A stretch of DNA of 17,607 nucleotides from a virus. Its lineage: Duplodnaviria > Heunggongvirae > Uroviricota > Caudoviricetes. A model generated the notes under the pieces. That model was not told the DNA's origin, ran no database searches, and saw nothing but the letters and a program-made list of their open reading frames with translations. Positions 1-16,857 of this stretch are shown in pieces. Where the stretch lies: positions 1 to 17,607 of the IMG/VR virus record IMGVR_UViG_2896607866_000008. One strand, written 5' to 3'. Each line of letters starts with the position of its first letter. Within the stretch, counting starts at the first letter, position 1. The position numbers and the translations under genes are program-made.

Positions 1-163
1 CACAACATCCGAGGACAGCATCGTCCGCCAGCCTACAGAAGTCCGGAAAGCCATGGAAGGTCGTTGGGAGGAGGTACGAATTCTATCATGCAAAAAATAC
101 GTAAAATCGATAACGCCTAGAAATCATTCAATACTCGCACTATCGAAAGTTTACCAGCCAACC

Positions 164-192
164 GCGGCACGTTCCTGCATACGACGTGCCGC
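164..192. other. Perfect 9-bp inverted repeat (GCGGCACGT / ACGTGCCGC) with an 11-nt loop, just past the stop of the 201-824 gene; possible terminator or protein-binding palindrome
   Basis: Read directly: 164-172 is the reverse complement of 184-192. No strong U-tract on either strand. Confidence 0.3.
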
Positions 193-200
193 AGCTTCTG

Positions 201-824
201 TTATTCCACGATAAAATTCCTAACCGAATTCAAATCCTTCAGACTATTCAGCTCTTCCTTCAGCTCCCGCTGACGGCGATAAATCTCATCGTTGCGATCG
301 ACCTGCGCCTGCACCATTGCTGCCGCCAGTTCTTCCAGTTCCGGCATCGACAGTTTCACCTGCTGATTATCGGCATCGCTCCACGCCATATGTGTTTGTG
401 CTGTGACAGATTTTGCCAGCATGACTACCGGGGACAGGCGGCCCAGTGAGTCGGGACCAGCATTCCAGATACGACCGTTCCATTCAAACGTGAACGGCTT
501 CGCCTCCTGTTCTGCGCGCCATGCTTCAATTTCCTGACGTCTGGCCTCTCTGGCCGCTTCCAGCATTTCTGGTGTCACAGTGAATGGGGCTATCTCACCC
601 CATTTGCCGCTTTGCAGTTCCTGCCAGATTTGCTGACCCGTCGGAGCGACATCATCAGCGGTGGCTGTGTAGGGGACTGCCTGGTCCCTGTCGTCAAAAA
701 AAACGTCACAGTCTACTGCGCCACTTTCGGTATAACGGGGATTAATGATTTTTTTAATTTCCACGATGCATTCCTCACGATGTGCGAATAAAAAGCCCGG
801 GCATTGCGCCAGAGACATGTGCAT
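201..824 (-). CDS. Putative phage tail fibre assembly/chaperone-like protein (207 aa)
   Basis: Long ORF immediately downstream of a side-tail-fibre-like gene; acidic coiled C-terminal half typical of fibre chaperones. Not a clear lambda Tfa match, so the family is inferred mainly from position. Start could be M1 or M3. Confidence 0.45.
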   Translation of the reverse strand: MHMSLAQCPGFLFAHREECIVEIKKIINPRYTESGAVDCDVFFDDRDQAVPYTATADDVAPTGQQIWQELQSGKWGEIAPFTVTPEMLEAAREARRQEIEAWRAEQEAKPFTFEWNGRIWNAGPDSLGRLSPVVMLAKSVTAQTHMAWSDADNQQVKLSMPELEELAAAMVQAQVDRNDEIYRRQRELKEELNSLKDLNSVRNFIVE

Positions 825-1128
825 CCGGCACCCCGGACAGGGCGCAATATGACCCCGGTAATGAATGCTCTGAACATCCCGTAATGAAAAATTGTGGGGA
901 TGCTATATACGTTCCGGTGGGAGTACTGGGCACTGAAATCCCCACCGGTCCCAGTCGTGAGCCTCTGTATGACTGCCCCCTGACAAGTCTGATGACTTTA
1001 TCACCGTCAGCTTCTCCCTGGTACGCAACAATAATCAGCCCGCCAATGTCAGGGTCTCCCCATCTGTTGCGGACAGAGCTCGCCACGATTCTGTAAATAA
1101 TATCTTCTGTGGTTATATTTATTTTCAC
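775..1128 (-). CDS. Hypothetical 117-aa ORF with GTG start overlapping the stop of the upstream fibre gene; possibly the out-of-frame C-terminal remnant of a once-longer Stf
   Basis: The ORF begins at a GTG overlapping the TGA of ORF 1125-2039 and ends inside the start of ORF 201-824. No recognisable motif. Confidence 0.2.
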   Translation of the reverse strand: MKINITTEDIIYRIVASSVRNRWGDPDIGGLIIVAYQGEADGDKVIRLVRGQSYRGSRLGPVGISVPSTPTGTYIASPQFFITGCSEHSLPGSYCALSGVPDAHVSGAMPGLFIRTS

Positions 1129-2039
1129 CCAGTCAGTCTGGATATGGGCCAGTAGCAGTAGCGGGTGTGATAAATGGGGCCGTTAATGCCGTAAAAAGTA
1201 AGGGATTTGGCTCTGTACCGCGGTTCTGTTGTCTCAGGGCGTGCATCAGTCCACCGGATGCTGAGCCCCCCTTCAAACCGTGTGTCGGGTATGATGATGC
1301 CGTAGGGGCCAGCAACGGAATATTCACCTGGCAGCGCATTCCTTACCCAGGCCAGGAAATCACTCTTAGTGTCAAAACGGATAACATCTTCAGGCAGAAA
1401 AGCACACCCAAAGCCGAATGCGCCGGGTATCGCCAGACGGCCTTTTGTCCGGTCGTAAATGTCGCTCTGTGCTTCCATCGTGGCCGCACTTTTCAGCCCC
1501 AGATTATCCCGGGACTTCTGTTGTGCCTTTTCGCCTGCTGCTGCGATTTCAGACAGATGGTTAGCCGTTTTCAGGGTGCCGGTCAGCGCAGCATCAATGT
1601 CATTTTTGGCCTGTTCTGCTGCGCGGGCATAACCTGCGGCTGCCGCCACATCCTGCGCCGTCTGCTGTGCGTTTCCGGCTGCGGCCCCGGCGCTCTGCTG
1701 CGCCTGCGCCACCATTTCCTCAAAGCGTTTGACGACATCCGGTTTCAGGTCGCCCTCATCAGGAGCAATCAGAAAGTCATTCAGCGTGCCGGGCTTTGAG
1801 TCCTCATATACAGCAATGTCGCCAACGTTGTACTCGTTGCGCCAGTCCTGTTTCAGATACACACCATATTTTCCAGTCCGCGCATGGAAACAGTATTCAC
1901 CATCGTTTCCTGTCATCACATCAGCAACAGTGTTCATCACCACTTCCGGGGTGTTTACCCGGGATTTCAGAATAATATGGTATCCGGACATGGGGATACC
2001 TGCGCCATCAGTCAGCGCACCTGATATCACTACAAACAT
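1125..2039 (-). CDS. Side tail fibre protein, lambda Stf-type N-terminal domain (304 aa, much shorter than full-length Stf proteins)
   Basis: N-terminus MFVVISGALTDGAGIP...VYEDSKPGTLNDFL matches the conserved prophage tail-fibre N-terminal domain of lambda Stf / Rac StfR (MAVKISGVLKDGTGKP...VYEDSQPGTLNDFL), followed by an Ala/Gln-rich coiled region. Full-length Stf proteins are several hundred residues longer. Confidence 0.65.
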   Translation of the reverse strand: MFVVISGALTDGAGIPMSGYHIILKSRVNTPEVVMNTVADVMTGNDGEYCFHARTGKYGVYLKQDWRNEYNVGDIAVYEDSKPGTLNDFLIAPDEGDLKPDVVKRFEEMVAQAQQSAGAAAGNAQQTAQDVAAAAGYARAAEQAKNDIDAALTGTLKTANHLSEIAAAGEKAQQKSRDNLGLKSAATMEAQSDIYDRTKGRLAIPGAFGFGCAFLPEDVIRFDTKSDFLAWVRNALPGEYSVAGPYGIIIPDTRFEGGLSIRWTDARPETTEPRYRAKSLTFYGINGPIYHTRYCYWPISRLTG

Positions 2040-2062
2040 TGTTTTTCTCGCGATAAATTAAA

Positions 2063-2608
2063 TCAGGAAGAACCTTCCGGAGAGGCGGGCCATTCAATGG
2101 CGTTGTATGAGGATTTATCAGTGATGGTGCTGAAATCCATCGCCTGCAGCGATTTCGCGTAAATACGACAGGCTTTCAGCTTTTCTTTATCTTCGTCGCT
2201 GATTAACCCCAGCAGCAGGTCTTCTTCCCATTCCCCTGTCCGGGCACTGACCTGAGCCAGAAGGGCATCACGCTCATCTTCCGCTTTGAGTCTGTAGTCA
2301 AAGACAAATTCATCATTGCGGTAAAACCAGTAACCCGGCGCGGTAATCCGTCGGTTAGCGGTAATATCAGGAACTTCAATAACACTGGCATTGCGTGGCT
2401 CGATGCCTGTCACATCCTTACCGACCCACACCACGCGACCATCTCCGGTGTAAGCTATTTTTATTGTGTCGCTGGCGAAATTCTTCAGCTCTTCATACCA
2501 GTTTTTTCCGTCTTCTGAAAAAAGCCAGGAGACCGAATATCGTTTTGTCATCTGATATTGTTCTGCTGTTTTCGGATTACCCGCAGTAATATTTTTTAAA
2601 TGCAACAT
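2063..2608 (-). CDS. Tail fibre assembly protein (Tfa family chaperone, 181 aa)
   Basis: N-terminal MLHLKNITAGNPKT...WLFSEDGKNWYEE and C-terminal ...IEWPASP are characteristic of Tfa chaperones (lambda Tfa ends DIEWPALP). It sits directly downstream of the tail fibre gene. Confidence 0.75.
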   Translation of the reverse strand: MLHLKNITAGNPKTAEQYQMTKRYSVSWLFSEDGKNWYEELKNFASDTIKIAYTGDGRVVWVGKDVTGIEPRNASVIEVPDITANRRITAPGYWFYRNDEFVFDYRLKAEDERDALLAQVSARTGEWEEDLLLGLISDEDKEKLKACRIYAKSLQAMDFSTITDKSSYNAIEWPASPEGSS

Positions 2609-2610
2609 TG

Positions 2611-3996
2611 TTAAATACTCGCTACGTTATACCAGGTGCCATTAATCAGTTTTTGCAGTGGTCGGTAATACACACCGTCAACGTTATCCGCTGAGTTACG
2701 GCCGGTATCCGATATCGCCATCCCTGACAGCCCGTGTCCCGAAGGTGCGCAAAATCTCCACGAAACGGTGTTACTGCCGGGGCTGTAATACATTTCATGG
2801 CCATACCGTACATCCTGTACCCCCTCTGTTCGATATTTATAGCGGGCATCGAAGTTTCCGTAATTTAACGGAATTACCTGTCCGTTAACAGTGAACACTA
2901 TGCTGTTATCCGGGTTTCTCTGGCTGAAAAAATGCCAGCCTGAATCATCGCCAAGCTCTGCAACAACAGGCCTGGATGGATTACCCCACAAATAAAACGC
3001 TGCATTTTTCGTGGAGTTGTTGGCGCTGGATAACGTGAATTTTCTGGCAGTTCCGGCCTGAATATTCTTAAAAGCAATAGCCACTCCATTCTGAAAGCGG
3101 AATACACGCTGACTATTAGCATAAACATCCAGAATACCGTCTCCATTCTGTTTAAATCCGGTGTCATTATCACCAAGAACAATTGAATTCCCCCCCAGGG
3201 CGTTCTGAACGCCGATACCCAGCGCACCATTGACCTGCGAACCACCGCCAACAGACACTTTATGCGACATGGATATTTCACCCGTCCGCAAATTAATGGT
3301 GAACGGGCGCAGGGGACCAATATCGCCATTTTCCCCCTGACCTTCACTGGTGGGAATAAGGTGCAGGCACTCTTCCGAACGACGAAAAATCAGGCCAAAA
3401 GCTTCGTTGAAAATCCTCAGCGCATTAACACCACGGATTTTCAGCTCTCCGGTTATTTTATCGCCTTCCCGATGAACATAGCGTTGATCTGACTGCTCTT
3501 TACTGTAAACCTGAAGATTATCCCGTGCCGTCCCTTTATTCTGAAGGTCTGACAGATTGTTCTTCTGCCGCAGGAATATCCTTTTCGGATCCTCAAGAAG
3601 ATTTACCCAGCCCGCACTGTCGGAGCCTTCAGGATCGGTCAGGTTATCGTCTGTGGTATTCAGCCAGACCGCTGTTGTTGCGACTCCGGCGAGAATGGCT
3701 CCTTTTGCATATCCACCAATGGCCCCCGCAAAACCGGCATTATACGTGTACAAACCGCCAGCCTGGGCGAACCGTATTGCTGCGGTAATATCGTACATCA
3801 GACCGTTAAAATCCTTGCCGTGTGGCGGTATACCTCCCGCTGAGACCGCTGTCATGGTCACCGGAGGAAAACCTGAATCATACGCAGCATTACCGCTCTC
3901 TCTGGTCTGCTGTGTCGCCTTGTCCGGGATACGGTTTTTATCTCCGGTACTCGCAAAGGGGACCGCCAGCTGGCGGGGTTTATCACTGGCCTTCAT
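2611..3996 (-). CDS. Tail fibre protein with P2 gpH-like C-terminal receptor-binding region (461 aa)
   Basis: C-terminal block [50 protein letters not shown] ... [11 protein letters not shown] matches the conserved distal tail-fibre domain of P2 H-type fibres as I recall it. Its position between the baseplate I-like gene and Tfa fits. Confidence 0.7.
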
Positions 3997-4587
3997 TACG
4001 GGACTCCTTTAAAACTACTGAAACATAAACACCCGGCGGGGATGGCAGTGCACCCGACGACTGGATAATCGCCAGTTCTGCCAACGAGAGCGCGGACTCA
4101 AAGACGTAACTCATCCTCAGCCCACCATTATTCAGAACATAAGCCCGCCGTTTTTTTCCGAACATAAATCTCAGCATCCGGTTAATATCCGGAACGGAAC
4201 AGTCAGTAATGTTCGACATGGCTTTCATCAGTATCAGCCGCCGGTATACAGCATCAGACAGGTCAACAGTCCGGGTATCCGATTTTCCGTTGTAAAACGG
4301 TGCCTGATTAAACGGACAGGGATCATCCATTACCGGGGTGTCCATCCTGGACTCGCTGAAGCCAGGTAATTAAAATCGTCCTTTACCGTCAGCCGGCGAC
4401 TGACACCCACAATCTTTCCCCAGACATCAAGACCATACTTTTCTGCGGTATCGATGTTCCAGATAAGACCATAAAAATCACTGATAAAACTGTCGGGGGA
4501 AAGCGCTGCGTTAAAGCTGTTAATGAGGGCATTGAGTCGGGGGCTGGCAGCATACTGCGCAAGCACAGTGGCAGCCACATTCTGCAC
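3983..4587 (-). pseudogene. Baseplate/tail protein I-like (Mu gp48 / YmfQ-like), split into 85-aa and 120-aa ORFs by a frameshift near 4330-4345
   Basis: Two adjacent ORFs in different frames overlap by 16 nt; together about 200 aa, the size of YmfQ/gp48-type proteins, and located exactly between the J-like gene and the tail fibre. The upstream frame ends ...SPGWTPR-stop and the downstream frame starts MDTPVMDD. Confidence 0.5.
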
Positions 4588-4588
4588 G

Positions 4589-5830
4589 TTATGCCTCCTG
4601 GAGTTTCACACTGATATCCGACACATCCAGAACCGGAATCTCATCTATCCCGAAAGTGACAGCCGTTGTCCATGACGAACCGTCACGGCTCACAGTAAGG
4701 CCCAGAATATCAATATGTTCCGGATCGGTTTTGTAAATGCCGGCATAGTAGCGCCCGGCAGAGACAACAGAGGCAACCCTTGCCCGCAGACCACCATCTG
4801 TACCATTAAATGCGTCCAGCACGGATTGCTGTACCTGTCGGGTAATATCTGAAGGCAGGTAGTCACTTTTTTTCAGAGTCACACTGACATGCAGACTGAC
4901 GGGTTTGAGTGTCTGCCAGCTGATCACGTATTCAGGATACGGCGGATCGTACTCCTTATCTGCAACAGTGAACGTTGTGTTGCCATTCATATCAATACCC
5001 GGCGGAGCCTTACGCCAGATGGCCGCCGCGATATCTGCCGGGCTGCCGCCGTACACGCCAACATAAAGCGAACCGGGTGTTAATGGATACTGACTGACTC
5101 CGGCTTTTTGTTCTGTTTTTTTCGGATTATGGGTGACGTAAACATCCACCACGTTTTCCACCGTGGAGAGTATTTCACCCCGGATGGCTTCCAGAATATT
5201 CCGGGCATTACGGGCAACTGAATTACGTCGGCGGTTTTCAAAGTCCGCACGGGTTTCCTCATCGCTGCCCGGCACACCGGCACTGGCGTTAGTGACACCT
5301 GACCAGCCAGGTATTGCCTTATAAATTTTATTCAGCGTCCCCACAGGACAGCCGACGGGGCCGGTGGACAAATTCAGAAATACCGCATCAACCTGCCCTG
5401 ATGCGCCGATAGTGACGTCTGACTGACTGACATACTTATAACCGGCCTCATCCTGCGCCATACTGCCCGCCGGGATCAGCGTGCCAACCAGCCCGGTACA
5501 GGTCGCTGTTACTGTCGTACCTGTGGCCCCGCGGCGCTCCAGGAAATAAATCCTGCCTATTGCATCCTGAAAGCGACCACTGGAAAAGTCAGGGTTGATC
5601 TGGTTAACGATATACAGCAACTGATCGTTTTTATCCGCAATAATGGCGCTTTCGCTGGATGCAAGTTGTCCCTGCGGACTGCTCAGACTGGTACTCATGG
5701 CCCCGCCCAGCGCCGCCGAAAAATCAGCAAGCCTGCCGCTCAGAATATCCGCTTCATCCGGCACATTCAGCCCGCTATCCGAAATCTGTACAGCGGGCAC
5801 TGCGGTAGAAAAAGATTTATTTTCACTCAT
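4589..5830 (-). CDS. Baseplate J-like protein (Mu gp47 / P2 gpJ family, 413 aa)
   Basis: Size, position after a W/gp25-like gene and before the I-like gene, and overall resemblance to baseplate J family proteins. ATGA-type overlap with the upstream gene. Confidence 0.7.
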   Translation of the reverse strand: MSENKSFSTAVPAVQISDSGLNVPDEADILSGRLADFSAALGGAMSTSLSSPQGQLASSESAIIADKNDQLLYIVNQINPDFSSGRFQDAIGRIYFLERRGATGTTVTATCTGLVGTLIPAGSMAQDEAGYKYVSQSDVTIGASGQVDAVFLNLSTGPVGCPVGTLNKIYKAIPGWSGVTNASAGVPGSDEETRADFENRRRNSVARNARNILEAIRGEILSTVENVVDVYVTHNPKKTEQKAGVSQYPLTPGSLYVGVYGGSPADIAAAIWRKAPPGIDMNGNTTFTVADKEYDPPYPEYVISWQTLKPVSLHVSVTLKKSDYLPSDITRQVQQSVLDAFNGTDGGLRARVASVVSAGRYYAGIYKTDPEHIDILGLTVSRDGSSWTTAVTFGIDEIPVLDVSDISVKLQEA

Positions 5831-6183
5831 AGCAGTACCGTAAAAATGTCATTATTGGTATCTGTAATACGCAGCACACCTGTTACTGTCCGGGTTTGAT
5901 CAGCTGTGACCAGGCAGACAGCGGCGCTCACGGTCGGCAGTTTAAGTGCTTCCTGTTGCAGAGTGGCATTCACCAGTTGTTTGCCGGGCCAGTGTCCGAG
6001 GATGCGTGGCCAGTAAGGTATGCCAGCCGTTGAGTCGTACCAGCACTCCCCCAGAAAAGTACTGCACGCACACGCCACATCCTGAGCTACCGCATGGGGA
6101 TTATCAGTAATGGCAAGATTTCCGGTATCATCAAGCAGGATATCCCATGTCCCGGTGTCAAGAAGAAGTGATCGTGACTGCAT
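5827..6183 (-). CDS. Baseplate wedge protein (GPW/gp25-like, Mu gp46-like, 118 aa)
   Basis: Small ORF between the spike V-like and J-like genes, 4-nt overlap with the J-like gene; conserved gene order V-W-J-I-H-G. Confidence 0.55.
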   Translation of the reverse strand: MQSRSLLLDTGTWDILLDDTGNLAITDNPHAVAQDVACACSTFLGECWYDSTAGIPYWPRILGHWPGKQLVNATLQQEALKLPTVSAAVCLVTADQTRTVTGVLRITDTNNDIFTVLL

Positions 6184-6195
6184 GTTTTCTCCTGT

Positions 6196-6873
6196 TTACC
6201 GGGGTCCCTGCGTGGTTGAGCCGCCGGACTCAACGCCGCCGTGAACGTGGTTTCCAAAATCAATACCCCCGATGTTCGAACCGCCGGAAAGCCTGGACTG
6301 CCCGGTAACGTCAAGCCCCTTACTGACGGCGGTATCGCCGTTCAGCGCAATTTGTGGTGAATTAACGGTGAAGCTTTTCGGCGCATTAATCACACCCTCA
6401 GGCGCGGATATCTCCACTTTCCAGGGAGATACAATCCGTATCTGGTTGTCATCAAATACCACAAACTGGACGGGATCACCGTTGAGCACGCCACCCAGCC
6501 AGATGGCATCAGCATAATTATGGGTACGCTTTGATCCCGGCATCGCAGCCTGACGCGTGGCTTTTACCGCACTGATATCCCGATCGCAGATGGCAAGAAA
6601 ACCGATATCCCCCACATGTGGCGGCATAATCACCGCATTACCGCCCCCCTGTAGTCGCCATACGGGAATGTTATAAATCACCTCATGTTCAACCGGGGAA
6701 CCGTCTGCTGCAACGCCCATTACCATCGGTCGGGCCTCAATAAATCCCTCTTCCACGGCTACCACCCGTCCCAGAGTGATAAACGCATGACGTCCGAGAA
6801 ACTGCCGCAGCATAAAGTCCTGTGCATTGATTTCGCTGTTCACGTCTGTCGGGTTACTGAGTGGTTGTGCCAT
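6196..6873 (-). CDS. Baseplate spike / assembly protein V-like (Mu gp45-like, 225 aa)
   Basis: Gly-rich C-terminus with HxH motif (GIDFGNHVHGGVESGG) typical of phage central spike proteins; position upstream of the W-like gene. Confidence 0.65.
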   Translation of the reverse strand: MAQPLSNPTDVNSEINAQDFMLRQFLGRHAFITLGRVVAVEEGFIEARPMVMGVAADGSPVEHEVIYNIPVWRLQGGGNAVIMPPHVGDIGFLAICDRDISAVKATRQAAMPGSKRTHNYADAIWLGGVLNGDPVQFVVFDDNQIRIVSPWKVEISAPEGVINAPKSFTVNSPQIALNGDTAVSKGLDVTGQSRLSGGSNIGGIDFGNHVHGGVESGGSTTQGPR

Positions 6874-7723
6874 TTTCTTCAGCCCTCATCATGGTACAGT
6901 TGGAACTCCACGGACCGCCCACGGTTCGCGAAGTAATGGTGTGTATCACCCCTGTGATCGTATAATCGCCCGTCATATCAGGCAGTGACGATTCCAGATG
7001 CGCTGGCCTGCCAGTAAAGAGATCGGGGCAGAATATCGTGGTGGCGCTGAGTCCGGTCATGGTGTAAACCGGATAGCCAGTCAGTCCGTGATCCGGCGAA
7101 ATCAGTACCGGCGGAATATTCCGGTTCTGCCCTTTCGGCCAGATGGTGACTTTCTCCACATTCCCCAGATCAATGTTAATATCGGCGGCTGAAGCGACAT
7201 CCAGCATTTGTTGTACAACATTACCGGAAAAATGCGGGTCAGACAGACTGCGGCTGACCCCCTGGTTTTCAAATCCAAGCCCGACAGTTGACGCCAGCGC
7301 ACGGATAATATCTGCAACCGCAACATCGCCCTTTGCGCTGAAATCTGCCGCCGGCTGATTACGCAGATTAAAATGAATCTGTCCTGTCAGAATGAGCGGA
7401 ATATCCGGCGCCTGGTTGTAGTCGGCGTATGCATCAGTAATATCACCTTCAAAAATAAGCCGCCCGTCGGCCCACAGCCGCATTTTATTTGCGGTACTCT
7501 GCTCCTGTCGCCACACACCGCGCCAGCTTAAATTCGTCATATGCGCCGGTGACATTCCCCAGATATACAGCGTGATTTGTGTACCAGCCACCCCTCCATA
7601 TACGGCAATACTGGCAAAACAGCTTGCGTCGGTAATGGTCAGCATATTGCCCTGGCCATTACCAAACGTTCGTCCGTCTGAAAGAGTGAACTCCACCGTT
7701 ATTTTATGTTGTCTGTAGCTCAT
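6854..7723 (-). CDS. Phage tail/baseplate-associated protein (possible hub-like, 289 aa)
   Basis: Long ORF in the tail module immediately upstream of the spike gene, 20-nt overlap with it. No diagnostic motif recognised; assignment is by context. Confidence 0.4.
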
Positions 7724-8022
7724 ATCAGTTCCTCAGGTAACAGCCAGTAGAGCCGGTACCGGGATCCGAGCCCCCGCCAGTCAGGGTCACTATTCCCCTC
7801 CGTGTCGGTAAAAAACAGGTCCCCCTGAAACGGCAGGTATCCGTACCGGACAATCCGGTTATTATTCAGACACAGCACGCCATACAGGCACGGTTCACCA
7901 TTAACAATGATATCGATATACATCCCCGTAGTACGCTGATTCAGGCGAATGGTGCAGACCTGAGCGCCCAGTGTCACCGTAAACTGCTGGGCTTTAACGG
8001 GAGATAAAACAATTTCCAGCAT
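7720..8022 (-). CDS. Hypothetical phage protein (100 aa)
   Basis: ORF with a 4-nt ATGA-type overlap to the downstream 289-aa gene, suggesting translational coupling. Confidence 0.4.
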
Positions 8023-8288
8023 CAGGTGATCCCCCTGTTCGTGGCGCTTCGTCTGTCAGCGTCTGACGGTTGTGTCACCGACGCCGTAACTGGCTGCGTT
8101 TTAACCGATGCGGCCCCTTTTGCTTTATCGTTGTCCGTGGGAGACGACTTATCCGTACTTCCCACTGACACCTCTCCTGTATTCATTACGGTCTGAAATA
8201 CCGCAGTAACCGTCAGTAAGGTCGGACCACTCATCGTCTTTACGCGGATCGCTACGCCAGTGAAACGTAAACACCGGGATTTTTCCAC
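8022..8288 (-). CDS. Small hypothetical ORF with low-complexity Ser/Thr/Asp-rich tail; start uncertain (M1 8288, M19 8234 or M35 8186)
   Basis: ORF in a different frame overlapping the 3' end of the truncated terminase ORF. It may be a small YmfR-like gene or an out-of-frame remnant. Confidence 0.25.
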
Positions 8289-9018
8289 TGTGCCGCTTCT
8301 GTGCGAAGGGGTTGTTCATACCGTTAACCGATGAGAGATCGATACGACATCGGGTTGTCTGGGAAAGCGCGGCATCAATAAGTAATGGTCGCTGGAGAAA
8401 AGCAGCCTCATCCACAAAATAAAGGGTCGTACGGTCACCACGACCGATATTATCGCCAGCCTCACCTTTGATAACCGCGCCAGTTTCAGGAAACTCAACA
8501 CGCATATATGGCGCGTGCTTCTTCTCGCTCCACGAACCGCGAAACTCTACAGGTAGTGTTTCCACGAACTTGCGCGCCTTCCAGAACAATGCTTTCGGGT
8601 CACCGGTGCTGTCGACGTATTCCTCTTTACGGGAGCCGAAACCGATAACCATTTCTTTGTTGAAGAGACAAAGCGAGCAGGCCAGTCCGATCGCGGTCCA
8701 ACTGAGCCCCATTTCACGGGATTTTTCGGTAATACCATTCTCCCGATTGCTCCAGCGTTTCATAATCCAGTGGATCCACTCCTCCTGCTTAGGGAAGAGT
8801 AAAAACGGAATGGTCACCGGCAGGCCATAATCAATATTACGCGGGTCCGTTGTCATGCCCCAGTCGATAATGAACTGAGCCGGGTTGGTACGGTAAAACT
8901 GTTTTAGTGCAGGCAATATTTCAGGATTCTGGCGAATGCGCTGTAGGCGTTCCATCCGCCATTCAAAAACCATCTGGTAATCAGGATGTTTAAAATCGAA
9001 GGGGAATGGTAACGGCAT
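8149..9018 (-). CDS. Terminase large subunit, N-terminal ATPase domain only (289 aa; nuclease domain absent), likely a truncated remnant
   Basis: Walker-B-like LYFVDEAAF and downstream SSVNG motif typical of TerL ATPase domains. The ORF stops after 289 aa with no nuclease domain, and the next genes are baseplate genes rather than portal/capsid. Confidence 0.55.
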
Positions 9019-9020
9019 AC

Positions 9021-9253
9021 TTAGCCCATCATTTTTCTATACACCTCTGCGGCCTGCTCAGGCGTTAATTTGGTAATTTCTGTTCTGACTGGTCCTCCGT
9101 CAGCGCCAGTCACTTCATTTTTGACGTTGTCTTTAAACGCCTGAACAGAAACATGGCGCCCAAGCAACTCAAGGTTTTTAACCTTATCAGGCCATTTGAT
9201 TTTCTTCAGAAGTGCGGCGCTATCTGCGGATACCATCTCCACGACATCCATTC
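9021..9253 (-). pseudogene. 3' fragment (about 77 codons) of a phage gene upstream of terminase large subunit, 5'-truncated by IS911
   Basis: The reading frame runs from inside the IS911 left end (so the N-terminal 24 codons are IS-encoded) to a stop 3 nt before the TerL start. Identity unknown; a small-terminase or DNA-binding protein is a guess. Confidence 0.35.
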
Positions 9254-9325
9254 TGAAGTGGCACACTGAATTTGGCCACCTGAACAGAGGTGATATGCTC
9301 ACCTCAGAACAACACAGGTGCTCCA

Positions 9326-10494
<1,169 letters not shown>

Positions 10495-10669
10495 CCACTT
10501 CAATCCCCCATGTCACATAGCTTGAACTGAATCAGATCCTTCACAAGCTGCTCAGCCTTTTTAATGGCCTTCTTCTCTTTCTTCCGACGAGTCATGAGAG
10601 CGCTATGAGGTAGCCTGAGTTTAACGGACACTCCTTCCTGAAATAGAATGGCATCAGAAGGAGCTAATA

Positions 10670-10972
10670 ATGAGCAGAAAAACCCAACGTTACTCTAAAG
10701 AGTTCAAAGCCGAAGCTGTCAGAACGGTTCTTGAAAATCAACTTTCGATCAGTGAAGGCGCTTCCCGATTATCCCTTCCTGAAGGCACTTTAGGACAATG
10801 GGTTACCGCCGCCAGAAAAGGGCTCGGTACTCCTGGTTCCCGCACGGTGGCTGAACTGGAATCTGAAATTCTGCAACTGCGTAAGGCGTTAAATGAAGCT
10901 CGCCTTGAGCGAGATATATTAAAAAAAGCAACAGCGTATTTTGCACAGGAGTCGCTGAAAAATACGCGTTAA
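10670..10972 (+). CDS. IS600 transposase OrfA (100 aa)
   Basis: MSRKTQRYSKEFKAEAVRTVLENQLSISEGASRLSLPEGTLGQWV...; an A7G slippery run lies near its 3' end. Confidence 0.9.
   Translation: MSRKTQRYSKEFKAEAVRTVLENQLSISEGASRLSLPEGTLGQWVTAARKGLGTPGSRTVAELESEILQLRKALNEARLERDILKKATAYFAQESLKNTR
10921..10928 (+). promoter_or_regulatory. IS600 putative -1 frameshift slippery run (AAAAAAAG)
   Basis: Read directly near the end of orfA, with orfB in the -1 frame downstream; frameshifting is inferred by analogy with other IS3-family elements. Confidence 0.5.
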
Positions 10973-11007
10973 TCGAACAATGGCGACAACAATTTCCCAT
11001 TGAAGCG

Positions 11008-11826
11008 ATGTGTCAGGTATTTGGTGTATCCAGGAGCGGTTATTACAACTGGGTACAGCATGAACCCTCAGACAGAAAACAAAGTGATGAGCGGCTAAAA
11101 CTGGAGATTAAGGTGGCACATATCCGCACTCGCGAAACATATGGAACCCGGCGGCTCCAGACGGAGCTGGCAGAGAATGGCATCATCGTTGGTCGTGACC
11201 GACTGGCACGTCTTCGTAAGGAGCTAAGGCTACGCTGTAAGCAGAAACGCAAGTTCAGAGCGACTACGAACCCGAACCACAATCTGCCAGTTGCGCCAAA
11301 TCTGCTGAACCAGACGTTCGCTCCTACAGCACCAAATCAGGTCTGGGTGGCGGACCTGACGTATGTTGCCACACAGGAGGGATGGTTGTACCTCGCTGGC
11401 ATCAAAGATGTTTATACGTGCGAAATTGTCGGCTACGCCATGGGAGAGCGCATGACAAAAGAGCTGACAGGTAAAGCCCTGTTTATGGCGCTCAGGAGCC
11501 AGCGCCCACCTGCCGGGCTAATCCACCACTCTGATCGAGGTTCACAGTACTGCGCATACGATTACCGGGTCATACAGGAGCAGTCTGGTCTGAAAACATC
11601 AATGTCGCGTAAAGGTAACTGTTACGACAACGCTCCGATGGAAAGCTTCTGGGGAACGCTGAAAAATGAGAGCCTGAGCCACTATCGTTTTAATAACCGG
11701 GATGAAGCCATCTCAGTAATACGGGAATACATTGAGATTTTCTACAATCGTCAGCGTCGTCACTCTCGTCTGGGGAATATCTCCCCGGCAGCCTTCAGGG
11801 AAAAATATCATCAGATGGCTGCTTAA
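11008..11826 (+). CDS. IS600 transposase OrfB (DDE domain, 272 aa from first Met)
   Basis: ...NQVWVADLTYVATQEGWLYLAGIKDVYTCEIVGYAMG...HHSDRGSQYCA... typical IS3-family DDE transposase. Confidence 0.9.
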   Translation: MCQVFGVSRSGYYNWVQHEPSDRKQSDERLKLEIKVAHIRTRETYGTRRLQTELAENGIIVGRDRLARLRKELRLRCKQKRKFRATTNPNHNLPVAPNLLNQTFAPTAPNQVWVADLTYVATQEGWLYLAGIKDVYTCEIVGYAMGERMTKELTGKALFMALRSQRPPAGLIHHSDRGSQYCAYDYRVIQEQSGLKTSMSRKGNCYDNAPMESFWGTLKNESLSHYRFNNRDEAISVIREYIEIFYNRQRRHSRLGNISPAAFREKYHQMAA

Positions 11827-12142
11827 AAAAAGAACAAATGGTAGTGTCCGCTATTGCCAGTACACCTCAGTAATCCATTTCGACTATAACTGACAGGTCA
11901 TCACGACGTATGACTGCGTATTTGCTACTAAATAGTTTCTTTATTTTTTCCACGATGCCTCCAAGTTTATAAGTACAAACGGTTATATCCACATAGAGAC
12001 AAAAATATTAATCTGAAAAACATTTATTTCACGCCGTATATTTGATTGTTTAATGTGCAAGTACAATGACTTTTATTTTTTGTTGTGTATATAATCAAAT
12101 ATATGGTTATTTTTCACCCTGCGTATTCAGCACGCAACAAAA

Positions 12143-12162
12143 AACCCGCCGAAGCGGGTTTA
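12143..12162 (-). terminator. Rho-independent terminator at the 3' end of the hok mRNA
   Basis: AACCCGC-CGAA-GCGGGTT hairpin; on the minus strand it is followed by TTTTTTGTTG, on the plus strand only by TTT. Confidence 0.6.
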
Positions 12163-12228
12163 GTGCGGGTGCGTTGAGGATGCCTGACACATGAGAGGTG
12201 GCGAGGGATTTCTCCCCCGCCTGGTCTC

Positions 12229-12384
12229 TTACTCCTCAGGTTCGTAAGCTGTGAAGACAGCGACCTCCGTCTGGCCGGTTCGGATTCGTACCTCGCAGAG
12301 GTCTTTCCTCGTTACCAGTGCCGTCACTATGACGGTTAAACAGATGACGATCAGGGCGATTAACATCGCCTTTTGCTGCTTCAT
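12229..12384 (-). CDS. hokD: Hok/Gef family type I toxin (51 aa), HokD/RelF-like
   Basis: Translation MKQQKAMLIALIVICLTVIVTALVTRKDLCEVRIRTGQTEVAVFTAYEPEE read directly; matches the Hok/Gef consensus and, to my recollection, E. coli HokD (RelF) specifically. Strong SD (AGGAG) 8 nt upstream. Confidence 0.85.
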   Translation of the reverse strand: MKQQKAMLIALIVICLTVIVTALVTRKDLCEVRIRTGQTEVAVFTAYEPEE

Positions 12385-12441
12385 AGCCTGCTTCTCCTTG
12401 CCTTTCGGCACGTAAGAGGCTAACCTACATTTGTGAGACAT
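12229..12441 (-). CDS. Mok-like overlapping reading frame (70 aa, in-frame N-terminal extension of Hok)
   Basis: An in-frame ATG 19 codons upstream of the hok start (MSHKCRLASYVPKGKEKQA-) with a GAGG SD; the same architecture as mokC/hokC, which share a stop codon. Confidence 0.55.
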   Translation of the reverse strand: MSHKCRLASYVPKGKEKQAMKQQKAMLIALIVICLTVIVTALVTRKDLCEVRIRTGQTEVAVFTAYEPEE

Positions 12442-12723
12442 AGATTGGGCCTCAGATTAATGTTAAGCGTCTTGCAGGACGCGTAATGTTAACTGGGGCT
12501 TTTCTCTGTCTGCCTTACAGTGGCATGCCCGAGGCAGACAGCCTCAAGCACCCGCAGCAATCTTACCGATACCGATAAGAAAACGCTATTTTTTATTGCC
12601 AGCACCTTCTATCCAGGCTAATTTATCTGCGTCAGAACGGCGCAATGCGCTCGCCTGAGATACGTTTACTTGCCATGGTAACAACAGGTAACGGCAATTG
12701 CTGTTTCTGTTTTGTTTCCTTCA

Positions 12724-12757
12724 AAAACCCCGGACCATCAATCCGGGGTTTTTGTTT
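12724..12757. terminator. Bidirectional rho-independent terminator
   Basis: AAAACCCCGG-(9-nt loop)-CCGGGGTTTT flanked by A-runs and T-runs on both sides; it lies 2 nt downstream of the 27-aa ORF stop on the minus strand. Confidence 0.6.
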
Positions 12758-12758
12758 G

Positions 12759-12842
12759 TTAACCCCAACGGCAAATCGAATACACCACCAGCGCCACCGC
12801 CATCGCAATTCCTACCGTGGTGAATGCCTCAGGCCAGGTCAT
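12759..12842 (-). CDS. Small hydrophobic peptide (27 aa, MTWPEAFTTVGIAMAVALVVYSICRWG), translationally coupled to the DUF551 gene
   Basis: Not in the ORF track (too short). Its ATG overlaps the TGA of the upstream gene (AATCAATGACC), a GGAGGT SD sits 6 nt upstream, it has a single predicted transmembrane helix, and it is followed at once by a terminator. Confidence 0.35.
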   Translation of the reverse strand: MTWPEAFTTVGIAMAVALVVYSICRWG

Positions 12843-13204
12843 TGATTCACCTCCTGCGGTGGTTCCGGTAGCGGCATCCAGTGAGTTGAGCTCTCTACTT
12901 CAACGCCGTCTTTGTCCACAAAAGCCATCTTATTCCCGCCACGAGTGGGGCAAAAAACCTTATCCCAGGAACCGGGGAATACATTCCCGAGATCATCGAG
13001 AAGAATCACATCGCAATATTCAGCAGGAACTGCATCACTACAGCTTATCCAGCCAGCCAGAGTTACCGGAGAGTTGCCAGCCTTACGCATGGCCATTTCC
13101 ACGATTTCAACCATATCTCCTGGTGGAATTTTACAAAGTTGCCCAATACATTTCTGCTGCCTGGCATATTCGAGAATGTGCTCCAATTTGGTTCGATTAA
13201 TCAT
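12839..13204 (-). CDS. DUF551-family phage protein (121 aa)
   Basis: C-terminal ...THWMPLPEPP motif characteristic of DUF551 proteins of lambdoid prophage early regions; TAATG overlap with the upstream gene. Confidence 0.55.
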   Translation of the reverse strand: MINRTKLEHILEYARQQKCIGQLCKIPPGDMVEIVEMAMRKAGNSPVTLAGWISCSDAVPAEYCDVILLDDLGNVFPGSWDKVFCPTRGGNKMAFVDKDGVEVESSTHWMPLPEPPQEVNQ

Positions 13205-13869
13205 TATTTATCTCCCTTAAGCATGGCAGCGCGGCAGGCGTTCCAGCCATCAACATAATCAAACGTATTACTATCGTTTGGCCCGATTTCATCCGGCACT
13301 ATCGGCTCTGGTTGGATAGTGACGTTGGCAAAGGCAGCACGCAAACCGGTTTTAATTTCTTCGATTTCATCAGAGCCAAGCGATGAATCTGACAGTGCGT
13401 GATGGAATGCGTAAGCCATGTCGTCGTTTACTGCAACCGGCACTGCCGGCGCTGCGTAAAGCGGTGTTATATCTGCCCGAAAATCACATGCTTTATGCAG
13501 TCGTACCCAACGCTCAACTTCCGCTTTGTCAAAATATATAGCAGTGAACGTATTAGATTCCTGGTCAACTTGAGTAAACGTCACCTTCCACGCTACAGCT
13601 ACGGCTTTCCATCCATCAGGTTGTCGCATTCGCGGGGCAGCATAAAGCTCATGCATTCCATCAGGCAGCGAGTGACCCACATACTCACCGAACCCGTCAA
13701 TACACATGCCCCCATCTTCAACAATGCATTCCGCTACAGGCTCTGCTTCCAGTGATGCCAGAGCGATAAGCGCCAGTTCACGAATTTCACCGCCGTCTAT
13801 ATCGTCAATATCATCGCGGCCAGAAATGTTAGCCAGCCATTGCAGTCGCTCTTTGGTAATAGTGGTCAT
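13204..13869 (-). CDS. Hypothetical phage protein (221 aa, acidic, two LYAAP-containing segments)
   Basis: ORF tightly coupled on both sides (ATGA overlap with HNH upstream, TAATG with DUF551 downstream); SD GAAGGGG. No recognisable catalytic motif. Confidence 0.5.
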   Translation of the reverse strand: MTTITKERLQWLANISGRDDIDDIDGGEIRELALIALASLEAEPVAECIVEDGGMCIDGFGEYVGHSLPDGMHELYAAPRMRQPDGWKAVAVAWKVTFTQVDQESNTFTAIYFDKAEVERWVRLHKACDFRADITPLYAAPAVPVAVNDDMAYAFHHALSDSSLGSDEIEEIKTGLRAAFANVTIQPEPIVPDEIGPNDSNTFDYVDGWNACRAAMLKGDK

Positions 13870-14231
13870 GCCGTAGCCCCTTCTTGATATTTTTCAAACC
13901 AGAACACAACCGGGTCAGATTTCATTTCAACCAATCCCATACGAACCAGCGCTTTGCCTTTCCCGGACGCAAGGAATTCACGACGACCATCACTGATAAT
14001 TCGTCGATAATCTTCCAGGCTACTGCAATGCTTGTGCAGATTGCATGGGTGGCATTCTGGTACCATGTTGGATATATCGTCACGTTCCTGGTGAAGCATA
14101 TTTCCATCAAAACGAATGACCGGTTTTACATGGTCTGCATGCCACTTTTCGCCAAGTTCGCAGCCGCAATAAGCGCAGCGACCACCGAACTTCATGCGCA
14201 GTTCTGCACGTTGTTTTTTCGTCAGTGCCAT
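13866..14231 (-). CDS. HNH endonuclease (121 aa from MALTKK; the ORF track shows a longer 151-aa frame from 14321)
   Basis: CAYCGCELGEKWHADHVKPV....CHPCNLHK is an HNH motif with two Cys pairs. The start at 14231 is preferred because of an AAGGA SD and the immediately preceding stop of the 72-aa ORF. Confidence 0.75.
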   Translation of the reverse strand: MALTKKQRAELRMKFGGRCAYCGCELGEKWHADHVKPVIRFDGNMLHQERDDISNMVPECHPCNLHKHCSSLEDYRRIISDGRREFLASGKGKALVRMGLVEMKSDPVVFWFEKYQEGATA

Positions 14232-14232
14232 A

Positions 14233-14451
14233 TCAGCTTTCCTTATACGGATTAATTTTATTGTGCAGTGTGTTGAATGACGCCCATACCACGTCGTTAT
14301 ACAATTCAATAACTGGCTCAATTATTTTTCCGATTATCCAGACAAAAATTAGCGGGGATATCGGTGTCATCAACACGATAAACAGAATGAGAAACAGGAA
14401 TTCTGTTGTTCTACTCTTTCGCGGATATTTTTTTCTAAATAATGTAACCAT
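14233..14451 (-). CDS. Small predicted membrane protein (72 aa), coupled to the HNH gene
   Basis: Hydrophobic stretch FLFLILFIVLMTPISPLIFVWIIGKII; its stop is 1 nt before the HNH ATG. The SD is weak, so coding status is uncertain. Confidence 0.35.
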   Translation of the reverse strand: MVTLFRKKYPRKSRTTEFLFLILFIVLMTPISPLIFVWIIGKIIEPVIELYNDVVWASFNTLHNKINPYKES

Positions 14452-14457
14452 TCATTA

Positions 14458-14473
14458 CCGCCCTTTCGGGCGG
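14458..14473 (-). other. GC-rich stem-loop (CCGCCC-TTTC-GGGCGG) in the intergenic space between the truncated upstream gene and the 72-aa ORF
   Basis: Perfect 6-bp stem with 4-nt loop read directly; AU-rich but no clean U-tract after it on the minus strand. Confidence 0.3.
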
Positions 14474-14543
14474 TCTCCTGATGATTTGAGGGTGCAGAAA
14501 TCCCTCCGGTTAAGGATTAAATTTTTAACAGTGCTAAATTTAA

Positions 14544-14769
14544 TTATTCAGTTCTGGATTTTGTCGCCCTGCGTATCCGCGCTTTCGCATTACGCTCAAT
14601 CTGTATCAGCTTTTCTATATTTCTCCGCCTTTCCTGTTCCTCCTGGCGCAATAGTCTTACATCATCTGCCAGTCTGGTTTCTCTTTTTGCCACAGAGAGC
14701 ATCCAGTCAAACGGCTCCACAACCGCACCGCAGATTTTACAGCGGACCTGACGCTCTTTTTCGTCAACC
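14544..14769 (-). pseudogene. 3' fragment (75 codons) of an unknown gene, 5'-truncated by IS911 copy 2
   Basis: Open frame ...VDEKERQVRCKICGAVVEPFDWMLSVAKRETRLADDVRLLRQEEQERRRNIEKLIQIERNAKARIRRATKSRTE-stop runs directly out of the IS911 right end at 14770. Confidence 0.35.
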
Positions 14770-14777
14770 TGAAGTGG

Positions 14778-15931
<1,154 letters not shown>

Positions 15932-16000
15932 TGGAGCACCTGTGTTGTTCTGAGGTGAGCATATCACCTCTGTTCAGGTGGCCAAATTCAGTGTGCCACT

Positions 16001-16857
16001 TCAGGTATTTGGTGTATCCAGGAGCGGTTATTACAACTGGGTACAGCATGAACCCTCAGACAGAAAACAAAGTGATGAGCGGCTAAAACTGGAGATTAAG
16101 GTGGCACATATCCGCACTCGCGAAACATATGGAACCCGGCGGCTCCAGACGGAGCTGGCAGAGAATGGCATCATCGTTGGTCGTGACCGACTGGCACGTC
16201 TTCGTAAGGAGCTAAGGCTACGCTGTAAGCAGAAACGCAAGTTCAGAGCGACTACGAACCCGAACCACAATCTGCCAGTTGCGCCAAATCTGCTGAACCA
16301 GACGTTCGCTCCTACAGCACCAAATCAGGTCTGGGTGGCGGACCTGACGTATGTTGCCACACAGGAGGGATGGTTGTACCTCGCTGGCATCAAAGATGTT
16401 TATACGTGCGAAATTGTCGGCTACGCCATGGGAGAGCGCATGACAAAAGAGCTGACAGGTAAAGCCCTGTTTATGGCGCTCAGGAGCCAGCGCCCACCTG
16501 CCGGGCTAATCCACCACTCTGATCGAGGTTCACAGTACTGCGCATACGATTACCGGGTCATACAGGAGCAGTCTGGTCTGAAAACATCAATGTCGCGTAA
16601 AGGTAACTGTTACGACAACGCTCCGATGGAAAGCTTCTGGGGAACGCTGAAAAATGAGAGCCTGAGCCACTATCGTTTTAATAACCGGGATGAAGCCATC
16701 TCAGTAATACGGGAATACATTGAGATTTTCTACAATCGTCAGCGTCGTCACTCTCGTCTGGGGAATATCTCCCCGGCAGCCTTCAGGGAAAAATATCATC
16801 AGATGGCTGCTTAAAAAAAGAACAAATGGTAGTGTCCGCTATTGCCAGTACACCTCA
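16001..16857 (+). mobile_element. IS600, 5'-truncated partial copy (lacks about the first 408 bp including the left end and orfA); junction with the IS911 left end at about 16001-16003
   Basis: Sequence from GGTATTTGGTGTATCCAGGAGCGG onward is co-linear with copy 1 from 11013 onward; the right end ...GTACACCTCA is at 16857. Confidence 0.85.
16004..16814 (+). pseudogene. IS600 orfB lacking its orfA partner and frameshift context (the ORF-track protein MAKFSVPLQ... has an IS911-derived chimeric N-terminus)
   Basis: The OrfB sequence is identical to copy 1 from QVFGVSRSGYY onward; the upstream 26 nt of the ORF belong to the IS911 end. Confidence 0.7.

Follow-up and report, generated by a model that had tools for sequence, protein, structure and literature searches.

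A short island between IS911 and IS600 in a decaying Shigella prophage, very probably the relic of a Rha/antirepressor-like gene

Between a copy of IS911 and a copy of IS600 in a Shigella prophage lies a short stretch of DNA that belongs to neither element, and in which a minus-strand ATG opens a small reading frame. Is this island the beginning of a disrupted gene, an open frame arisen by chance, DNA imported by the insertion sequences, or a piece of a gene left in its place? We examined the question in a window of 17,607 nucleotides (the whole stretch of DNA that was analysed), which is 100% identical over all its bases to CP024470.1, from S. flexneri 3a strain 71-2783. The genome announcement of this strain flags the assembly as a draft with an unresolved collapsed repeat. 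We hold with high confidence that the island is a non-functional relic, still in situ, of codons 158-191 of a 198-codon Rha/antirepressor-like gene, between Rz and TerS of a decaying lambdoid prophage. The features of the window are collected in Table 1.

Table 1. Features of the island and of the surrounding prophage, in window coordinates
Feature	Position	Strand	Description
Tail-fibre and baseplate genes	~200-8000	-	Decayed prophage, left part
Large terminase gene, 5' part	8226-9018	-	92% identity to phage vB_EcoM-606R2 terminase genes; PHROG terminase large subunit
Small terminase gene, 3' part	9021-9253	-	Codons 109-184 of the L011 homologue, cut by IS911-A; PHROG terminase small subunit
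IS911 copy A	9254-10502	+	1249 bp; IRL TGAAGTGGCACACTG... at 9254, IRR ...GACCACTTCA ends at 10502
ORF of 31 codons from internal Met161	10500-10595	-	TGA supplied by the IS911 tip
Relic of the 198-aa Rha/antirepressor-like gene (very probable)	10503-10605	-	Last nt of codon 157 and codons 158-191 (SALMTRRKKEKKAIKKAEQLVKDLIQFKLCDMGD)
IS600 copy 1, full length	10606-11869	+	1264 bp; begins TGAGGTAGCCTGAGTTTAACGG...
Phage segment: hok/sok, DUF551, 221-aa gene, HNH-like gene, DUF4014	11870-14769	-	2.9 kb; match to L011
IS911 copy B	14770-16003	-	1234 bp, inverted with respect to A and 15 bp shorter; IRL side adjoins the IS600 remnant at about IS600 position 411
IS600 copy 2	16004-16857	+	Lacks the first ~410 bp; adjoins a truncated LysR-type gene

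Flanking elements and original place of the island

The two elements that enclose the island had been named correctly from the outset. IS911-A has the length (~1250 bp), the terminal TGAAGTGG... inverted repeats, both of which could be read, and the orfA and orfB (9290-9628 and 9655-10494) of its kind, and agrees from end to end with the IS911 annotated in phage Sf6 (99.7% identity). Its right inverted repeat, ...GTTGACCACTTCA (in a longer reading ...GGCCAGTTTTTGTTGACCACTTCA), ends at 10502. IS600-1 combines 1264 bp and TGAGGT... inverted repeats with an orfA of 100 aa (10670-10972) and an orfB of 272 aa (11008-11826), shows 99.9% identity to elements annotated as 'IS3-like element IS600', and starts (TGAGGTAGCCTGAG...) at 10606, 10 bp upstream of the ATG. 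What belongs to neither IS is thus 10503-10605, i.e. 103 bp and not the 101 bp first reported; base 10502 is common to the IS911 tip and the phage sequence, so its assignment is ambiguous.

Simple insertion of an IS3-family element leaves a 3-bp (occasionally 4-bp) duplication in an otherwise contiguous target, and neither element shows this: the flanks are TTC and AAT for IS911-A, and CTA and GTA for IS600-1, with no target-site duplication at either. The junctions therefore point to deletion or recombination instead of simple insertion. Two simple independent insertions are excluded, as the 3-bp duplication is missing at both elements and the gene is not resumed beyond either of them. Hence the initial annotation, which had proposed a relic of two independent insertions or of deletion, holds in that both insertion and deletion took part, and fails as to two simple insertions.

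The island was matched in 17 of 5,426 complete E. coli genomes, in 28 places and with 98-100% identity (megablast), and in all 17 genomes listed the CDS annotated beneath the match is a 'hypothetical protein' or a 'Rha family transcriptional regulator'. A plasmid collection searched with the island gave no match. In three prophage loci (L001, L002 and L011, the last being CP065611.1, a related and apparently intact prophage that served as reference) the island is identical over 103-104 nt to nucleotides 471-574 of a 597-nt gene (100%, BLAST). This stretch takes in codons 158-191, with one base of codon 157 (its last) before them and the ambiguous first base of codon 192 after them. The intact gene encodes 198 aa and lies at 5976-6572 on the minus strand in L001 and L002, and at 14665-15261 in L011. 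The rest of it (codons 1-157 and 192-198) is absent from the window, where the island is the sole match. We are thus looking at an in-frame match to the interior of a gene both ends of which are missing, that is, an internal, 3'-proximal relic. The proposal that a remnant of a disrupted gene is trapped between IS911 and IS600 is upheld by this intact homologue (104/104 nt).

Does this fragment still stand where the gene once stood? Three segments of the window align with L011 (BLAST): 8503-9253 with 16666-15916 (98.5% identity), 10502-10605 with 15238-15135 (100%), and 11869-14268 with 10004-7602 (98.75%). All three are on the same strand and in the same relative orientation, separated by gaps of 677 bp and 5130 bp. 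The order and strand of the fragment and of the flanking phage pieces are kept as in the intact relative, where a single strand carries, in this order, the HNH-like gene, the 221-aa gene, DUF551, hok, YbcO, the Q-like gene, ORF6N, holin, lysozyme, Rz, the 198-aa gene, a 67-aa gene, TerS, and TerL. In intact relatives the segment at 11870-14769 is found upstream of Q, and its orientation is that of the island. Where the window has IS911-A, L011 has 677 bp (15239-15915) with the final 7 codons of the gene, the 67-aa gene, a spacer, and codons 1-107 of TerS. Where the window has IS600-1, L011 has 5130 bp (10005-15134) with YbcO, Q, ORF6N, holin, lysozyme, Rz, and the beginning of the gene (codons 1-157), so that the loss reaches ~4.7 kb farther upstream than the gene. 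The sizes and contents of these deletions are read against one related prophage; lambdoid phages are mosaic, and the true ancestor may differ. From the collinearity of the three segments we conclude that the island is at its original place.

The alternative that survives best is that the island was passenger DNA, brought from elsewhere by IS911 or IS600 through aberrant or composite transposition. The lack of a target duplication at either IS and a region that has clearly been rearranged several times would be compatible with such an import. However, the island has the position and the strand expected between the hok/DUF551 segment and TerS, which would be a coincidence had it been imported, and every other occurrence that we found is inside an intact gene, none beside an IS. 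We therefore regard import as very improbable.

An in situ relic could have formed in two steps. Each IS would first have inserted nearby, and the adjacent DNA would then have been lost, either through IS-mediated adjacent deletion or through homologous recombination between two copies in the same orientation. The missing target-site duplications would be explained by this later loss of the DNA beside each inserted IS.

The remainder of the window is also in decay. Near 8226 the large terminase gene is interrupted and runs into fragments of downstream virion genes (~8022-8290). The junction holds no IS; this deletion, IS-free and distinct from the other two, took away most head genes. Two minus-strand ORFs of 289 and 100 aa at 6854-8022, considered as an IS3-family element, proved to be baseplate and virion genes. 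A hok/sok locus at 12229-12553 (minus strand) appears intact in the prophage remnant: its sok RNA reaches 118 bits with Rfam RF01794, and 12229-12441 holds a 70-aa ORF of mok/hok type. There is also a sub-threshold isrK-like Rfam match at 12139-12220 (30.6 bits). The tail-fibre end (window 1-200; 19019-20870 in L005/L006) adjoins genes of an ABC-3/FecCD-type metal transporter, and the opposite end of such prophages is next to ttcA and dbpA in relatives, a neighbourhood that we take to be the Rac attachment region.

The parent gene and its family

In the L001 and L002 prophages the 198-aa gene comes after a lysis gene and before the 67-aa gene and the packaging genes. This location between lysis and terminase genes is common to two E. 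coli prophages, CP065611.1, and Erwinia phage Midgardsormr38, with one or two small genes intervening between the 198-aa gene and the terminase in some relatives. The homologue in Midgardsormr38 is full-length, 77% identical, annotated as Rha family, and located just after Rz/Rz1 (tblastn against phages), and more distant, N-terminal phage matches fall in 'antirepressor Ant' genes (tblastn).

Residues 1-139 of the 198-aa protein are covered by PHROG matches to phrog_26415 (unknown function), phrog_4936 (transcriptional regulator), and phrog_63 (anti-repressor Ant), those to the regulator and Ant families reaching 1e-9 to 1e-10 over residues ~5-139. Pfam and NCBIfam returned no family at E <= 0.1 for the intact 198-aa E. 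coli/Shigella protein, nor any for the downstream 67-aa protein. PF09669 (Phage_pRha) was matched by 6 of the 13 rows of the family alignment, the best with an E value of 3.9e-5. Searched against PDB sequences, the family profile gave a chance-level match only (E 0.21).

A scan of species-representative genomes found 56 loci of the family, in Symbiopectobacterium, Edwardsiella, Xenorhabdus, Photorhabdus, Arsenophonus, Tatumella, Proteus, Providencia, and other genera, and homologues of full length exist in many Enterobacterales. The closer homologues keep the whole C-terminal module to which the island belongs (GSxLMTxRKKEKKAIKKAEQLVKDLIQFxLCDxGDFPxGxxA in the family alignment). Judging from these similarities, the parent gene is predicted to encode a divergent Rha/antirepressor-like protein present in prophages across Enterobacterales; its family is poorly characterised and common in such prophages.

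Two observations on the family stand apart from the island. The contigs of Candidatus Arsenophonus triatominarum (L037-L060) hold more than 20 copies of Rha-like genes with 56-59% identity in one symbiont genome, which suggests a massive amplification of a prophage or of a phage-derived element. In L013 (UGFN01000003.1, 15054-15500) the same 198-aa gene has decayed independently: an internal deletion from nucleotide 248 onwards has joined nucleotide 247 to the middle of the 67-aa gene, and just downstream, ahead of TerS, there is an IS600. We considered L013 as an intermediate with IS600 inside an otherwise intact gene and rejected it, as the deletion is a different one and the IS600 lies downstream of the 67-aa gene.

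The reading frame in the island

The minus-strand ATG is at 10595-10593, with IS600 10 bp upstream, as initially annotated, and opens the peptide MTRRKKEKKAIKKAEQLVKDLIQFKLCDMGD, followed by a stop (window reading and translation). The frame, first described as 30 codons running on into IS911, does exist, yet it has 31 sense codons and stops at once at the element's edge: its TGA (10502-10500) is the terminal TGA/TCA triplet of the IS911 right inverted repeat. At the point where the window ORF meets this TGA, the intact gene has seven further codons (FPDGKPA), the translation in L001 and L002 ending in ...FEMHGQAGSALMTRRKKEKKAIKKAEQLVKDLIQFKLCDMGDFPDGKPA before its own stop. The ATG corresponds to position 6092 of L001 and L002, and (6572-6092)/3 = 160, which makes it codon 161, in frame. 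It would thus be an internal methionine, start-like only since everything upstream of it has been removed, with a stop contributed by the IS911 tip. More generally, an internal methionine beside an IS tip can mimic a start codon, and the terminal TGA of an IS can close a frame.

Could the relic nevertheless have been co-opted, as an expressed basic peptide of 31 aa (or of 43 aa from a GTG at 10631), or as an RNA transcribed from an IS end? The frame is neatly closed by the IS911 TGA, and the right ends of IS3-family elements carry an outward -35 element, from which transcription might be imagined. But an outward promoter in the IS911 right repeat would read the antisense strand, and in a scan of 10350-10800 the single promoter-like site was that of IS600, on the plus strand, with no sigma-70-like site on the strand of the ORF and no terminator-like site. 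No Shine-Dalgarno (AGGAGG-like) motif is visible in the bases upstream of the ATG (GGCTACCTCATAGCGCTCTC), Rfam has no match on the island, and the whole segment that holds it is missing from two further genomes that carry this truncated prophage and are probably S. flexneri as well. The fragment (residues 158-191) also lies outside the region matched by the Rha/Ant profiles (~5-139), and therefore contains no Rha domain. Judging by the absent signals, it is not expected to be expressed or functional, and read-through from neighbouring transcripts is possible. We find co-option even harder to credit than import.

The initial annotation had taken the island for an orphan 5' fragment: the ATG was the true start, the protein had a very basic N-terminus, and IS600 occupied the promoter side. 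An ATG followed by an open frame invites this interpretation. In a 5' fragment, however, the ATG should be the start of the homologue and homology should stop upstream of it, while here the ATG is the in-frame codon 161 of 198 and homology reaches 470 nt further in the intact genes. In the DNA alignment, the 10 bp between the IS600 tip and the ATG (Ser-Ala-Leu) are identical as well. In 12 homologues, from several genera of Enterobacterales and one Erwinia phage, the island segment follows about 150 conserved residues in the same frame. The 198-aa CDS is moreover annotated by PGAP, and the missing Shine-Dalgarno motif speaks against a start at this ATG as well. The basic stretch lies inside the C-terminal tail, and IS600 sits in the body of the gene, where it replaces codons 1-157 together with upstream DNA. 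A 5' origin is thus refuted by the in-frame homology upstream, with almost no probability left.

A small ORF would not by itself speak for a gene, since the same 500 bp (10300-10800) are overlapped by ten ORFs of 25 aa or more, but the island is lifted above a chance frame in intergenic DNA by its identity (104/104 nt) to the coding sequence of an annotated and widely conserved gene; the search of related genomes did find the intact gene, and it is scarcely conceivable that there never was one.

Other states of the locus and comparison with known systems

Copies A and B of IS911 are inverted and identical save for a 15-bp indel near 10024-10031 of copy A. The short form is found in copy B and in L007, and the long one in L005, L012, and L015, a distribution that hints at several recombination outcomes. 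IS911-B is flanked by ACC and GGT, which are reverse complements and not a direct duplication, and IS600-2 is joined exactly to its left end. At the same LysR junction, L079 (ANAN01000163.1) carries a complete IS600 without any IS911.

The same truncated prophage is present in another state in L005 and L007 (UGYT01000001.1 and AKMV01000020.1 as a pair). These genomes have TerS, a single IS911 that is the counterpart of copy B, and the IS600 remnant, and lack window positions 9254-14769 (5.5 kb), which include IS911-A, the island, IS600-1, and the hok segment. The TerS nucleotide at 9253 meets the left end of IS911-A in the window, whereas in L005 and L007 it meets the right end of an IS911 of opposite orientation (compared L005 regions: 9700-9830 and 8470-8570). 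Both end points of the difference are thus IS911 tips, although A and B are inverted. Since the two copies are inverted, one homologous exchange cannot give the state of L005 and L007. None of the routes that we considered for this difference (simple homologous recombination, inversion plus recombination, and duplicative inversion) fits without extra steps.

It is possible, if rather doubtful, that L005 and L007 record an IS911 event in natural isolates that was aimed at the tip of another IS911 copy; the island would be a dead relic all the same. One option is a single-strand transfer of the right end of IS911-B to the IS911-A boundary, and another would be a third IS911 copy inserted next to A, followed by recombination with B. 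IS911 is reported to have a dual target specificity that includes its own inverted repeats (PMC9333248). Given this own-end targeting, a tip-directed event may be a reasonable explanation for L005 and L007.

A 32-mer across the IS911-island junction had no exact match in the GTDB species representatives, and a 171-bp query over both junctions found no place covering at least 80% of it in the 5,426 E. coli genomes. These searches thus gave no second, independent genome that would confirm the IS911-island-IS600 arrangement.

In annotations, the stretch is best described as a remnant from the interior of a Rha-like prophage gene, and not as a gene start or a small ORF; beyond this it has little further import. 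Since strains either carry or lack the 5.5-kb segment between the inverted IS911 copies, the locus could be used to mark lineages of S. flexneri, and it may show an IS911 end-targeted rearrangement in nature.

Three known systems can be set beside these findings. The parent gene resembles the Rha (PF09669) and Ant antirepressors: one allele is named 'Rha family transcriptional regulator' by PGAP, as is the homologue in the Erwinia phage, and its site in the late region, with lysis genes on one side and packaging genes on the other, is presumably that of rha in P22 too. It differs in that the E. coli/Shigella allele is without a Pfam or NCBIfam match at E <= 0.1, and in that the surviving fragment is the C-terminal tail only and lacks the domain that defines the family. 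We know of no experimental study of the 198-aa subfamily. With the rearrangements of IS911 (adjacent deletions, dimers, and targeting of IS ends) the locus shares junctions exactly at IS tips and the absence of duplications, and a mechanism of this kind may have acted here.

The closest likeness is with the IS-driven formation of pseudogenes and decay of prophages that is a general feature of Shigella genomes. As there, multiple copies of IS3-family elements (IS911 and IS600) lie inside a lambdoid prophage, truncated genes end at IS tips, target duplications are missing, indicating secondary deletion or recombination, and arrangements vary between strains. We see no substantive difference, other than that just 103 bp of the gene are left here between two different IS elements. 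The island is an instance of ordinary, textbook IS-driven prophage and gene decay in Shigella, of a kind already known.
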